From UHGV virus genome UHGV-1827629: DNA of 16,097 nt. The stretch is one strand, 5' to 3'. Shown here piece after piece: positions 3,595 through 8,105 of this stretch (position 1 is the stretch's first letter; every line of letters begins with the position of its first letter). The position numbers and the translations under genes are program-made. The notes under the pieces are model-generated. The model did not search any database, was not told where the DNA came from, and saw only the letters and a program-made list of their open reading frames with translations. Source of the stretch: a virus.

Positions 3595-4265
3595 CCCTCG
3601 CGGCTGTTCCAGTGAGGCGTTTCCTGCTCAGCACGTCCACGTTTAGCCAGCGGGTTAACCCTGGCGTTTCGAATCCAGACCCTGAAAGCCGAATTCCAGT
3701 CGATCAGCAGCGTGCCGCGGGAAAGGTGATAGTCCCGGAAGTTCAGCAGCTCAGTTTCAATGCTCACCCCCTTCTCGGCAGCCATGGCAATGTGATCTGC
3801 TGATGGCTTAAACAGGGGCGGGAATGGAATCTCCCCGTTTGGTGAAATCCCTATCCGACGTTTTGCGGCTTCGCTCATAAAACCTTCGCGCCCAGAGAGA
3901 GAGTTAGGTTCATTGACTGGTTCAAAAGAGTGACTGATTCTGGGTGCAGCTCCTGCACTACCCCCTAGTGAATCTGTTGCACTACCTAGTGAATCTCCTG
4001 CACTACCCCCTAGTGAATCTGTTGCACTAGGTAAGGTCAGGATGTAGATGTTTGTAGAGTTCCCTTTTGGCCCCTTCCTGAATACTTTTTTCAGTAATCC
4101 AGATTGGCAGAGATCATCAATGTGACTCATGACTGACCGCTTGCTAATTTCGCATTGGTCAGCAATGTATTGATAGCTTGGCCAGCATTCCCCTTGATCG
4201 CTTGCGTTATCTGCCAACTTCAGGAGTACGAGCTTACGCAATGGGTTACCAACCTTAATTTGCAT
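3576..4265 (-). CDS. O: Replication initiator O-like protein (replisome-organizer HTH N-terminus; ori iterons inside the gene)
   Basis: N-terminus [45 protein letters not shown] looks like a replisome-organizer HTH; gene lies between cII and P; contains direct repeats translated as [26 protein letters not shown]. Start ambiguous: ATG 4265 (SD-like GGTGA), 4277 or 4286; the track's 4376 is a TTG extension overlapping the zinc-finger gene. Confidence 0.7.
3952..4030. repeat. Candidate replication-origin iterons: alternating 24-bp (CCTGCACTACCCCCTAGTGAATCT) and 21-bp (GTTGCACTACCTAGTGAATCT) direct repeats, each with a CACTA...TAGTG dyad
   Basis: Read directly: units at 3952-3975, 3976-3996, 3997-4020 and partial 4021-4030, all inside the O reading frame, as lambda ori iterons are. 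Confidence 0.65.
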
Positions 4266-4464: not shown

Positions 4465-4546
4465 AATTGCTCCTGTGAATTGATCCAGTTAATTCCACCT
4501 GAAAGCCGTTGGTGTTCCAGCACCGCGGCTTTTCCCCTTTCTACGT

Positions 4547-4768
4547 TCATGCTTCAAAATCTCCATTCACCCCATCCCGGTTTGAAATCAGGATTGCCAG
4601 CAAAAGCGACATGTTCGGAAGCAGGTTTTCCCGCCAGCGACTCACCGTTGATTTGTTAACGCCAGCCACTTCTGCGATTTTTGTCGTACCCAGTTCTGCT
4701 ATCTGGCTGTGTAACCAGCTCTCTATCCTCCGGGCCTCCAGTTTGTTGCGTGTTGTTAAGGTGTCCAT
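4547..4768 (-). CDS. cII: CII-like transcriptional activator (73 aa)
   Basis: LEARRIESWLHSQIAELGTTKIAEVAGVNKSTVSRWRENLLPNMSLLLAIL resembles lambda CII (RIESALLNKIAMLGTEKTAEAVGVDKSQISRWKRDWIPKFSMLLAVL, from memory); GAGGAAG SD upstream; position immediately after cro. Confidence 0.7.
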   Translation of the reverse strand: MDTLTTRNKLEARRIESWLHSQIAELGTTKIAEVAGVNKSTVSRWRENLLPNMSLLLAILISNRDGVNGDFEA

Positions 4769-5146: not shown

Positions 5147-5851
5147 ATGAAAACATTCGCAGATCGACTCAACGCGGCTATGAGAGCCGCAGGCATATCC
5201 CAAGGGCAGCTGGCTGAGAAAGTCGGCATATCTCAACCTGCAATTCAGAAAATGACATCAGGCAAAACCACAGGCAGCCGTAAGATGGTTGAGCTTGCTC
5301 ATGCATTGAACGTGCGTCCGGAATGGCTCAGTTCGGGCATAGGCTCAATGCAGGACGAAGGACGCAAGGACTCCGCTATCCCACCAGAATCGGAATGGGG
5401 TAAAGTTGACGCTTGGGATAGCAAAACAGATCTGCCAGATGACGAGGTCGAAGTGCCATATCTGAAAGACATAGAACTTGCGTGTGGTGATGGTTCCTGC
5501 TTGGAAGATGACTATAACGGATTCAAACTTCGTTTTGCGAAGTCTACCCTTCGTAAGGTGGGAGCCCAGAAAGATAGCGTGCTGTGCTTCCCGGCATCAG
5601 GAAATAGCATGGAGCCCATGATCCCGGAAGGGACGACGGTCGCCATCAACACGAACGACAAAAAGATCGTTGATGGCAAGGTTTATGCAATAAGCCAGGA
5701 CGGATGGAAAAGGCTAAAATCCATTTATCGTGTGAGTCCTACCCGCATCGTGATTCGCAGCTTCAACAGTGAAGAGTATCCTGATGAAGAAGCGGATATC
5801 GAGAGCGTAGAGATTATTGGTCGCATGTTCTGGACATCTACTATCTGGTAA
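5147..5851 (+). CDS. cI: CI-like phage repressor (N-terminal HTH, C-terminal S24 LexA-like peptidase domain)
   Basis: HTH motif QGQLAEKVGISQPAIQKM; C-terminal GNSMEPMIPEGTTVAINT...WKRLK is the S24 Ser/Lys signature; divergent from cro across OR; no SD and ATG close to the putative -10. Confidence 0.85.
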   Translation: MKTFADRLNAAMRAAGISQGQLAEKVGISQPAIQKMTSGKTTGSRKMVELAHALNVRPEWLSSGIGSMQDEGRKDSAIPPESEWGKVDAWDSKTDLPDDEVEVPYLKDIELACGDGSCLEDDYNGFKLRFAKSTLRKVGAQKDSVLCFPASGNSMEPMIPEGTTVAINTNDKKIVDGKVYAISQDGWKRLKSIYRVSPTRIVIRSFNSEEYPDEEADIESVEIIGRMFWTSTIW

Positions 5852-5865
5852 TCAAGAGGGAAGGG

Positions 5866-6555
5866 ATGAAATTAGAACTAATAGCATTATCTTTACTGGC
5901 TTTAACTACGAACGCAATCGGCTCTAGCACCCTGAGCTGCGATTACGCTAAGTCGGACATCAGTAATGGAGCTAATGCTCCAATGATTCCTAGCGGAAAA
6001 GGCACTGTCGAATTTGATGGAAAATCCTTTAAAGCCACACGTCCAAATGGTGGTGTGATCATTTCACCAATAATCAGTGAACAAAAAAATGGAATGCTTT
6101 TTCTTGACGACAAGACAAAAGTGTTCGCGGCAAGCCTTTCTAAAACTGATTTCGCTATCTCTGACCGAATTGCTCGAATTACTGAGCAATGGGCCAACTG
6201 CATTGATGTTAGTCCATCGCCGAACAATTCAGATAACGACAAACCGGCAACTGCCTGGAAATATAGGTCTCTCACGAAGCAGGAGATAAATGCTGTTGAG
6301 GCAGCAGTGAAAGACCAATTGAAGGATCCAGAAAGTGCCAGATTCAAGCACTCTAAGTTTGTGAGCAACGGGAAAGGCGCTTACTGCGGCCTGGTTAATT
6401 CCAAAAACTCATATGGCGGCTATGCTGGAAACACTCCTTTCATGGTCATGCTTATCAACAATGGCAAACCTCACGCTGGCTTTATTGGTATGGGCGGAGA
6501 TGATGCCGAGACCCTGTCAACGCTATCCGTCTGCAAAGACAGTGGTTATTTCTAA
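5866..6555 (+). CDS. Secreted (signal-peptide) protein of unknown function, 229 aa, 4 Cys; moron in the rexAB-equivalent slot
   Basis: N-terminus MKLELIALSLLALTTNAIG-SS is a typical Sec signal peptide (AxG cleavage site, not a canonical lipobox); SD GAGGGAAGGG before ATG; visibly more AT-rich than flanks with rare Leu/Ile codons; followed by an intrinsic terminator. Confidence 0.65.
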   Translation: MKLELIALSLLALTTNAIGSSTLSCDYAKSDISNGANAPMIPSGKGTVEFDGKSFKATRPNGGVIISPIISEQKNGMLFLDDKTKVFAASLSKTDFAISDRIARITEQWANCIDVSPSPNNSDNDKPATAWKYRSLTKQEINAVEAAVKDQLKDPESARFKHSKFVSNGKGAYCGLVNSKNSYGGYAGNTPFMVMLINNGKPHAGFIGMGGDDAETLSTLSVCKDSGYF

Positions 6556-6660: not shown

Positions 6661-6720
6661 ATAACTTATGTGATGATAATTATAAATTAGGTTATTGCCA
6701 TCACTCATAACTAAGGTTAT
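6661..6720. promoter_or_regulatory. OL: three operators ATAACTTATGTGAT (6661-6674), ATAAATTAGGTTAT (6682-6695), ATAACTAAGGTTAT (6707-6720), inverted relative to OR
   Basis: Reverse complements fit the OR consensus ATAACCTnAGTTAT; spacing 21 and 25 bp; positioned as in lambda between the cI operon terminator and the leftward early operon. Confidence 0.7.
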
Positions 6721-6723
6721 CTT
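6695..6723 (+). promoter_or_regulatory. Candidate pL (-35 TTGCCA 6695-6700, 17-bp spacer, -10 TATCTT 6718-6723)
   Basis: Sigma70-like hexamers with canonical spacing, overlapped by OL sites 1 and 2. Inference only. Confidence 0.5.
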
Positions 6724-7349
6724 TAATCCATCGAAACGAAACATCGACAGCTGAGCGAAGTTAGCCAGCGGCGGACAGCAAGTCGCCTGCTTCTTTAACA
6801 AATCAGACTGAGTGACAGGCAAGCCGTAGCTCTCCTGGCAAAAAGAAATGGCACCCGATGGGATCGAGGTAAGCACTGAGTCCGTATGCGTACGGTAGGT
6901 GTAGAGGACCACGCTGCGATGAGCTGATAAGTCACTCAATTTGAAGCGCTCCGATGATGGGGCGCTGATTCAACTTAGAGGAGTGATTCCAATGAAGAAC
7001 TAAAGCGGACAGACCGCAGCCTAAAGGCAATGCAGCAGTAATGATGCCGCCCTGAGTCGCCGAATGGCGAGCCTGTGTAGTGATGGGTCAAGGTTCTTAT
7101 ATCAAAACAAGCTCCGGTAAAGCAGCGCGAACGCCAGACGCGCACCGGTTATGAGCGGCGATGAGCGACAAGGTCTCAAGGGCATGTGCGCGGCCACTGC
7201 GAGAGTGTGGCGAAGTTTACCAGCAGCTCTTTGCGAGGGGCTGACGGTAAACAAAAAGAGGAGTGTGTATGGCAGATAAAAAAACGGCGCCACTACTGCT
7301 TAACGTAGACGCCAGCGAGGTACTTACTCAGACCGGGGAGCTTTTAAAG

Positions 7350-7571
7350 TTACTTGAACTTCCAGCCAGTTCCTTTCAGGGAATTCCTGAGCATGTCGTC
7401 GATCTGTTTTTTGACCGTGTCCGTGGCCTGATTGACAACATCGTCCTTAGTGATTTCTCGACCACAGTCAGCACAACTGACGCCGGTGAAATTTGTCTCA
7501 AAGTCAAAATCATCGGGCTGGTTGAACATCTCACTTCCGCAGTCAGGGCACACGGTCCGCATGGTTTGCAT
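7350..7571 (-). CDS. Small zinc-ribbon protein (73 aa; CPDCG...CADCG)
   Basis: Two CxxCG knuckles 22 residues apart; AAAGGA SD 7 nt before ATG (cat 7569-7571); by my hand count this frame is more coding-like than the overlapping + frame. The + ORF 7269-7610 is an unresolved alternative. Confidence 0.5.
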   Translation of the reverse strand: MQTMRTVCPDCGSEMFNQPDDFDFETNFTGVSCADCGREITKDDVVNQATDTVKKQIDDMLRNSLKGTGWKFK

Positions 7572-7829
7572 GAATATATCCTTTCTACTGTTGGGGAGAT
7601 TAAAGAGTAAGCGATTTCTTGCTGTTGGGGAATAGCGGGAAAGCGCGCGCCGGGCGCGGATAAATACCCCGGCACTAACTGGAATGTTTTGGGCTGGCAG
7701 ACGGTTATCAGCTAGTTGGTGAGGTAATGGCTCACCAAGGCGACGACGGCCTTCCCTGCTGCTTGAAAGCGGGGAGCCAGCACCAAAACATTTCTCCCGC
7801 ATCAGCGGGTAACGACAGAGGGTAAGGCT

Positions 7830-8105
7830 ATGAAAACAAGTAGCGGACAAGAGATTTTAAAGGGATTCAATGTTCGTGATATCTCTGCTGATTATGACGA
7901 GCCAAGGTTTGATGTTTTGTTTGTCCACGATGATGGCAAATGCCGGTATTCAAACGATGTTTTTGGTTCTGAGCAAGAAGCCATCAGTTACGCAGAAACA
8001 TGTAACGCCAGCACAGCAGACGATGAATGCTGGGACTACTACCAGCACTCTTCAAGCAGCGCCGACTGGAAGCTGATTCATCACATTGAAGCTAAAGCCG
8101 CCTAA
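7830..8105 (+). CDS. Hypothetical early protein (91 aa, acidic, Cys-containing)
   Basis: SD AGAGGGTAAGG before ATG at 7830; stop codon lies in the loop of an intrinsic terminator. Confidence 0.55.
   Translation: MKTSSGQEILKGFNVRDISADYDEPRFDVLFVHDDGKCRYSNDVFGSEQEAISYAETCNASTADDECWDYYQHSSSSADWKLIHHIEAKAA

Follow-up and report, generated by a model that had tools for sequence, protein, structure and literature searches.

A probable nested antisense gene pair, with a zinc-ribbon gene on one strand, in the early-left region of an HK639-like lambdoid prophage

Antisense overlapping protein genes in bacteria and phages are controversial, and the accepted cases are young and lineage-restricted. Among the closest described systems are olg1 and olg2, two long overlapping genes of Pseudomonas aeruginosa (PMC8850804), and the oloz genes of E. 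coli O157:H7 EDL933 (PMC9927249). In the published antisense cases, the overlapping gene is taxonomically young, and its mother gene has a wider distribution that includes genomes lacking the overlapping gene (PMC9927249). The present work concerns a pair of antisense open reading frames (ORFs) at positions 7269-7610 of the UHGV virus genome UHGV-1827629, of which the whole analysed stretch of 16,097 nucleotides (nt) is referred to as the window. Here, a minus-strand ORF for a small zinc-ribbon protein lies inside a longer plus-strand ORF, referred to as the plus ORF, and the two probably form a nested antisense gene pair in which both strands encode proteins maintained by selection. The pair resembles oloz and olg1/olg2 in that a coding ORF is antisense to a coding gene and in that the evidence comes from ORF integrity and purifying selection. 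It differs from them in that neither ORF was found alone, that the pair moves between phage modules, and that it is known from sequence alone. The maintenance of both frames together in related phages is rare for bacteria and their viruses.

Morons of temperate phages are autonomous cassettes that sit among phage genes, as a rule bring a promoter and a terminator of their own, and are expressed from the prophage. The ORF pair shares with them the occurrence at several unrelated cassette positions (pL operon, post-tape-measure and baseplate), and in some families terminator-like hairpins bracket it. However, a classical moron is one gene on one strand, whereas the present cassette has a reading frame on each strand, and the search for a promoter consensus gave no match. 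With regard to the zinc-ribbon protein, Lar (TIGR03655) and MqsA/YgiT (TIGR03830, TIGR03831) have the same two CxxC(G) knuckles and a similarly small size, and Lar is likewise encoded in the early-left part of a lambdoid prophage. Membership in these families was rejected, as the scores were 17 bits against a cut-off of 39.6 for Lar, and 16.9 against 61.8 (TIGR03830) and 16.7 against 20.2 bits (TIGR03831) for MqsA/YgiT, with no helix-turn-helix (HTH) in the 73 amino acids (AAs). Since these scores are below the curated cut-offs, the zinc-ribbon protein lies outside the Lar and MqsA/YgiT families. It aligns over the whole model of the ECs_2282 family (NF047912), although this family is a name only. 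As its family has already been named by NCBI, the zinc-ribbon gene is not new. In contrast, no description of the constant antisense nesting of the ECs_2282 gene in a second conserved ORF was found in the literature or the libraries searched.

A sequence-only reading of the window had described an antisense ORF pair with Shine-Dalgarno sequences (SDs) and two knuckles, and these were confirmed on the sequence as follows:

7269-7610, plus strand: plus ORF, 113 AA (MADKKTAPLLL...GEIKE), with ATG at 7269 and TAA at 7608-7610
7256-7263, plus strand: SD of the plus ORF, AAGAGGAG, 5 nt 5' of the plus ATG
7269-7349, plus strand: N-terminal 27 codons of the plus ORF outside the overlap, motif AP..L.(I/V)DA(S/T)E
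7350-7571, minus strand: zinc-ribbon ORF, 73 AA, with ATG at 7571-7569 and TAA at 7352-7350
7579-7583, minus strand: SD of the zinc-ribbon ORF, AAGGA, 7 nt 5' of the minus ATG
7536-7550, minus strand: first knuckle, CPDCG
7461-7475, minus strand: second knuckle, CADCG

The description of the two ORFs as fully overlapping holds for the minus ORF, which is wholly nested, but not for the plus ORF, which reaches 81 nt past one side and 39 nt past the other. Likewise, the coordinates of the plus ORF and its near-perfect SD at ideal spacing were correct, while the stop had been counted in its reported length of 114 AA. The register is codon-opposite, i.e. position 1 of the plus codons corresponds to minus position 3, and the middle positions of the two frames face each other. 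Hand counts of composition were reproduced, with a third-position GC of 0.62 (minus ORF) versus 0.46 (plus ORF), and first-position purine fractions of 0.70 and 0.64, respectively. The reported use of CTT, TTA and CTA codons by the plus ORF amounts to seven, two and one, and all of its TTA and CTA codons, including the TTA of the minus stop, lie within the non-overlapping N-terminus. The codon-opposite register is the one in which shadow ORFs are commonest. As estimated from background codon use, an antisense frame in one sequence would be open over the minus ORF with a chance of about 0.4, and over all 113 codons with one of about 0.06. Such a coincidence in a single sequence is only mildly improbable, and therefore dual coding must be judged by comparing related loci. 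The topic of shadow ORFs has been reviewed elsewhere (PMC7457138).

The minus ORF is certainly a gene, as judged by its family match and its mode of evolution. It matches the NCBIfam model NF047912 (ECs_2282_CxxC) with 83.3 bits at a cut-off of 37 (residues 7-63 to model positions 4-60 of 60), and both CxxC pairs of the model are present in it and kept in homologues. Parsimony counts on 49 unique coding sequences yielded 101/50/262 substitutions at codon positions 1/2/3 of the zinc-ribbon frame (chi-square p = 2e-39). The median NG86 ratio of non-synonymous to synonymous substitution rates (dN/dS, or omega) of this frame was 0.12 across 28 pairs of diverged relatives. These results bear out the earlier suspicion that the minus gene is real. 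The four cysteines are invariant in 16 nucleotide clusters and also in families in which the zinc-ribbon protein is only about 40% identical, and the cysteines, proline and glycine of the first knuckle show no variation across these clusters and are kept in distant families. This invariance is attributed to constraint on the zinc-ribbon frame because the facing alanine and threonine codons of the plus frame could vary if that frame alone mattered. Within the plus gene, TTA, CTA and TCA account for 34 of 147 leucine and serine codons in the N-terminus compared to 2 of 305 elsewhere (Fisher 5e-16), and both exceptions lie beyond the zinc-ribbon start. The plus gene avoids these codons, which are stops on the other strand, only inside the overlap. 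By this substitution and codon pattern, it is the zinc-ribbon frame that governs sequence evolution within the overlap.

For the plus ORF, its persistence and its evolution make it very probable that it is a gene as well. A total of 172 loci were gathered via the zinc-ribbon motif alone, i.e. the plus frame was not consulted. Nevertheless, all of them (172/172) have an open plus frame along the entire zinc-ribbon ORF, and the sole stops are the natural plus stop, 1-4 codons from the zinc-ribbon start. A profile of plus-like proteins retrieved 86 proteins of 93-127 AAs across Enterobacterales. DNA was compared for seven of the most distant of these, from Providencia, Brenneria, Citrobacter, Yersinia and three metagenomic contigs, and the zinc-ribbon ORF is intact in 7/7 families, with 63-76 AAs, the same antisense register, an ATG, CPxCG and CxxC. 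Among Enterobacterales phages, neither ORF was found alone, with the plus protein followed down to an identity of about 20-30%. The homology search suggested in the sequence-only reading, in which conservation of only one frame would have spoken against the other, thus found both frames kept. A scan of GTDB genomes returned 5 loci only, one of which, from an actinobacterial metagenome-assembled genome (L008), is a doubtful relative and uninformative because antisense ORFs in a high-GC genome carry no information.

The 27 N-terminal codons outside the overlap allow the plus frame to be assessed on its own. In the families compared, a sharp conservation boundary coincides with the aligned plus ATG and SD. 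The DNA 5' of the ATG is unrelated between families and full of stops, an SD-like sequence precedes the aligned ATG, and downstream of it conservation is found at the AA level. Substitutions at plus positions 1/2/3 of the N-terminus number 76/64/111 (p = 8e-4), compared to 191/191/179 in an upstream 60-nt control, and the synonymous to non-synonymous counts are 49:63 versus 74:282 upstream (p = 4e-6). In separate analyses of three families, the plus-frame omega was 0.28, 0.39 and 0.48, with an NG86 median of 0.40 for the N-terminus. The other frames had an omega of at least 1 with one exception, and the codon-opposite antisense frame, at 1.04-1.47, provides a built-in negative control. A third minus-strand coding frame under the N-terminus, which shares the wobble position with the plus frame, also showed a low omega. 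It was rejected because it has stops in most lineages and is therefore not an ORF. N-terminal indels comprise whole codons and are in frame, and an (I/V)D(A/T)SE motif is common to families with zinc-ribbon proteins that are about 40% identical. Six-frame local alignment of the N-termini between families favoured the plus frame, with a summed score of 576 versus 369-429 and the best score in 11/19 pairs, but these scores are low and are supporting evidence only. The encoded protein is acidic and belongs to an uncharacterised family of 93-127 AAs.

Inside the overlap, the plus frame leaves its mark on changes that are silent in the zinc-ribbon frame. Based on a tree of 79 unique sequences and the observed synonymous rates, about 9 such changes creating a plus stop were expected, or about 5-6 allowing for rare-codon bias, and 0 were observed. 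Zinc-frame-silent changes are skewed to conservative replacements in the plus protein (P < 2e-4, resampling). Among the transitions, those causing radical replacements, defined as BLOSUM62 of -2 or lower, were observed 2 times versus about 20 expected, i.e. at about one tenth of the conservative rate. In zinc-ribbon genes, TTA and CTA are absent and TCA occurs only as codon 2, where it forms the plus stop, whereas the usage of these three codons in neighbouring genes, taken as background, is 14-18%. Atypical codons of the zinc-ribbon genes fix plus residues, namely CTC for 29/53 leucines, AGG, AGA and CGA for arginine, and CCC in 12/12 cases at one proline. Sequence evolution demonstrates coding in the plus frame outside the overlap and argues for it in part inside.

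The pair is found in Escherichia, Klebsiella, Enterobacter, Citrobacter, Edwardsiella, Yersinia, Brenneria and Providencia. At least three kinds of location were seen: lambdoid phages (the window, HK639, Edno5 and Citrobacter) carry the pair in their early-left operons, siphoviruses immediately behind the tape-measure gene, and myoviruses in the baseplate or Rha/KilA regions. In every setting examined, the plus gene runs with the operon and the zinc-ribbon gene against it. The tail-module and KP12-like families carry a strong hairpin plus T-run immediately 5' of the plus SD. In one locus (L128), this hairpin has the form of a terminator on either strand and another terminator lies past the plus stop, so that terminator-like hairpins bracket the cassette, as they do in another locus (L094). 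This distribution indicates that the pair is travelling as a single moron-like cassette.

The window itself is an HK639-like lambdoid prophage with the ORF pair downstream of pL. Positions 7200-7700 have 100% identity to prophage DNA of ten complete E. coli genomes, and positions 7216-7691 have 98% identity to phage HK639. The relevant features around the pair are:

5147-5851: cI-like repressor gene, with HTH and S24 peptidase
6695-6723, plus strand: pL-like promoter, TTGCCA-17-TATCTT, which would transcribe the plus ORF
7216-7268, plus strand: 3' half of a putL-like antiterminator RNA, abutting the plus SD and start
7588-7631, minus strand: two direct repeats in the zinc-ribbon leader, TCCCCAACAG; on the plus strand, CTGTTGGGGA at 7588-7597 and 7622-7631
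7643-7659, minus strand: GC-rich hairpin, then TTTCC, upstream of the repeats

The cI-like repressor gene is followed by a 229-AA gene, a terminator and the promoter-like site at 6695-6723. This site lies inside a 150-nt block that is 94% identical to the HK639 region annotated as 'putative pL', and because of this match the plus ORF is placed in the pL direction and the minus gene is convergent with it, in agreement with the sequence-only reading. Positions 7216-7268 are 98% identical to positions 4001-4057 of the HK639 locus, within its annotated putL-like RNA (3932-4057). The 5' half of this RNA has been replaced in the window and only the 3' half has been kept. The interval between pL and the ORF pair (6773-7216) measures about 440 nt in the window compared to about 93 nt in HK639, and its part at 7012-7210 is 90% identical to a segment of the Klebsiella phages RothC/RothD that lies 3' of the Q antiterminator gene and 5' of tRNA genes. 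A search against Rfam at gathering thresholds gave no match anywhere in the window.

On the opposite strand, an A/G-rich SD precedes the zinc-ribbon ATG in the families compared. The first direct repeat of the leader overlaps the C-terminal tail of the plus ORF, and equivalent repeats (TTCCACAG...GGAA) are present in the diverged pL-context relatives L004, L007, L091 and L177. The leader hairpin is kept with apparent compensatory changes, CCACGC/GCGTGG versus CCATGC/GCATGG, as judged by eye. The leader as a whole (7572-7680, minus strand) is common to very diverged pL-context families, and was also seen in L075 and L082 besides the four relatives just named. By eye, its repeats are about 33 nt apart, the second includes the SD, and an alternative GCCGGG/CCCGGC pairing would compete with the GC hairpin.

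The first 27 codons of the plus gene evolve as ordinary coding sequence. If both genes are real, the remainder would be read from the reverse complement of the zinc-ribbon codons, where the plus protein would be constrained chiefly against stops and radical replacements. The plus protein would be made from read-through operon transcripts, which here would be pL transcripts with the put-like antiterminator, and hence during lytic growth. The zinc-ribbon gene has an SD of its own, its leader is conserved, and some families carry a terminator past the start of the plus gene. It may constitute a separate opposing unit that would be expressed while the operon is silent, i.e. in the lysogen. Convergent transcription would render the two proteins mutually exclusive.

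Several results weigh against a pair of selected proteins. The plus protein has no match in Pfam, NCBIfam or a PDB sequence search, and its AlphaFold2 model is of low confidence, with a mean predicted local distance difference test (pLDDT) score of 55. The model of the zinc-ribbon protein shows strands around both knuckles, but its mean pLDDT is only 58, and neither model has discriminating power. Scans of the window and two other families revealed no sigma-70 consensus promoter for the zinc-ribbon gene. In the overlap, the plus-frame NG86 median is 1.1, class rates show no omega below 1, and plus-frame ratios conditioned on the zinc-frame effect range from 0.4 to 1.4. At synonymous sites, the zinc-ribbon gene has diverged by 0.6-2.0, about as much as the N-terminus of the plus gene (0.3-3.5), and therefore any constraint from the plus protein in the overlap is weak. 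The C-terminal three quarters of the plus protein are only loosely constrained. Furthermore, the sequences share ancestry, so P values that treat clusters as independent are optimistic, and parsimony on neighbour-joining trees ignores recombination.

The weak constraint in the overlap, with no plus-frame omega below 1, and the poor structure models therefore leave room for an explanation in which the zinc-ribbon gene alone is functional, and the plus ORF is translated only to provide ribosome cover against Rho-dependent polarity and yields a functionless product. The strong SD of the plus gene, its constant co-direction with the operon and the lack of a known domain in its protein would fit this as well. 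Nevertheless, this explanation is unlikely, since ribosome cover does not account for purifying selection on the AAs of the N-terminus in three families (omega 0.28-0.48), for the (I/V)D(A/T)SE motif common to families with such divergent zinc-ribbon proteins, for the roughly tenfold depletion of radical plus replacements among zinc-frame-silent changes, or for the tightly conserved length of the plus protein. The plus frame could also be a passive shadow ORF opposite a real zinc-ribbon gene, staying open because the codon-opposite frame of a gene poor in leucine and serine rarely gains stops. The chance of about 0.4 for an open frame over 73 codons in a single sequence and the codon-opposite register, in which shadow ORFs are most common in general, are consistent with this. 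However, a passive shadow is very improbable in view of the zero stop-creating changes out of about 9 expected, the frame being open in 172/172 loci, the extension of the plus ORF past the zinc-ribbon ORF on both sides with a conserved ATG and SD, and an N-terminal omega below 0.5 in the plus frame only.

Phage annotators and some PGAP runs call the plus ORF alone, and this ORF suits the operon orientation. That it is the sole gene, with the zinc ribbon as a chance shadow, is nevertheless the most remote of the alternatives and has already been refuted by the substitution pattern, as substitutions gather on plus position 1, which is zinc-ribbon position 3. The median dN/dS of 0.12 in the zinc-ribbon frame versus 1.1 in the plus frame, the four cysteines invariant across all families, the avoidance of TTA, CTA and TCA by the plus gene only inside the overlap, and the match of a curated NCBIfam model to the zinc-ribbon ORF all contradict it as well. 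A nested antisense pair of two selected genes is the reading preferred here.

The existing annotations are split between the two strands. In HK639 (HK639_45) and in Klebsiella phage records the plus ORF is annotated, while in most E. coli genomes with identical DNA RefSeq/PGAP has annotated the opposite strand, with the name 'ECs_2282 family putative zinc-binding protein' for the minus ORF. In E. coli TC24, identical DNA is annotated as the plus ORF, with the hypothetical protein WP_059343109.1. The protein database contains relatives of both products, 23 for the minus protein and 25 for the plus protein, and in the records examined the ECs_2282 ORF and the opposite-strand ORF were never annotated together. 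Many zinc-ribbon models in the database are N-terminally extended to 109-150 AAs compared to the conserved 63-76 AAs with their own SD, since no stop interrupts the frame as far as a TTG at 7850. Examples are WP_411690179.1, P0001, P0002 and P0007 (7350-7850 in the window, minus strand). The extension, which runs antisense through the leader and a tRNA-like slot described below, is probably an annotation artefact.

The sequence pattern of the minus-strand protein fits a C4 zinc ribbon, in which two beta-hairpin knuckles would hold one zinc ion. The protein is acidic, with an isoelectric point of 4.5, and beyond the putative ribbon it has a helix and then a basic tail. Pfam zinc-ribbon models scored below their gathering thresholds, a sequence search against solved structures gave generic zinc-finger matches only, and PHROGs matches of the ORFs were confined to families of unknown function. 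The sole match in the defence library was to PDC-M14A (E = 6e-6), a component of a candidate defence system in PADLOC. It is partial, with residues 6-72 aligned to profile positions 20-90 of 152. None of the neighbouring ORFs matched any PADLOC model, and no partner gene of this candidate system was identified. No relevant literature was found on ECs2282 or PDC-M14. This partial match is the only functional lead for the zinc-ribbon protein, whose most likely role is that of a small binding protein in regulation or defence. In a large Klebsiella cluster (122 members, K. quasipneumoniae), the first cysteine is replaced by arginine. If this is a change from TGC to CGC, the facing plus codon (GCA to GCG) still encodes alanine. 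In addition, a few of the Klebsiella clusters among P0011, P0017 and P0019-P0021 have frameshifted C-termini. The zinc-ribbon gene may possibly be decaying in these lineages.

Just downstream of the pair lies a hypervariable slot (7681-7800, plus strand), whose conserved flanks GGAATGTTTTG and AAACATTTCTCCCGC pair together. Among phages otherwise at least 96% identical in protein, at least 9 unrelated inserts of 64-155 nt were found in it (L001 at 4465-4560, L009, L014, L030, L032, L049, L050, L054 and L023). All inserts that were folded (8/8) form a multi-branched cloverleaf-like RNA closed by an 'acceptor' stem of 6-11 bp, most end in a 3' NCCA tail, and many also contain a hairpin that resembles a T-arm and has a loop of 7 nt. 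The HK639 insert was identified as tRNA-Ile (GAT) by ARAGORN and is the sole insert called as a tRNA; the remaining inserts had no Rfam match and no tRNA call. The element in the window folds at -60 kcal/mol (z = -6.4) and contains a 47-nt match to a helix of small subunit (SSU) rRNA (7704-7750, plus strand; Rfam SSU positions 172-218, 32 bits, E = 6e-7), which we take to resemble the 16S rRNA of Vibrio-type gamma-proteobacteria rather than that of E. coli. No relevant literature on tRNA-like elements in lambdoid phages was found.

Two neighbouring genes were considered as well. The 229-AA gene (5866-6555, plus strand) lies directly 3' of the cI-like repressor gene, at the position of rexA/rexB in lambda. 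It has no match in Pfam, NCBIfam or PADLOC, and its PHROGs matches are all of unknown function. It could be a prophage-expressed exclusion or defence gene. Past the tRNA-like slot, the next gene is a 91-AA ORF (7830-8105, plus strand) that matches phrog_33140, a family of unknown function. Since it does not have an arginine-rich N-terminus, it is not N-like in appearance. About 50 nt around its start (7783-7833) are 94% identical to the DNA under the N gene of phi80.

Annotation pipelines that bar antisense overlaps will go on losing one gene of this pair. The non-overlapping N-terminus serves as an internal control, and clean strand-specific knock-outs are possible. As checked on the sequence, the single-base change G7389T introduces a stop at E41 of the plus protein and leaves the zinc-ribbon protein unaltered, while C7532A introduces a stop at E14 of the zinc-ribbon protein and leaves the plus protein unaltered. 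The pair is therefore a tractable model for two proteins encoded on one sequence and for convergent transcription as a possible switch between lysogenic and lytic states. More tentatively, the two opposite-strand proteins might even constitute one functional two-component module, for example a zinc-ribbon factor of the prophage state, acting in defence, exclusion or regulation, together with a partner or antagonist in the lytic phase. If this were true, the shared base pairs would guarantee that the two genes are inseparable and convergent transcription would hard-wire their exclusive expression, which would explain the joint occurrence of the ORFs and the constant insertion of the plus gene in the direction of the operon.

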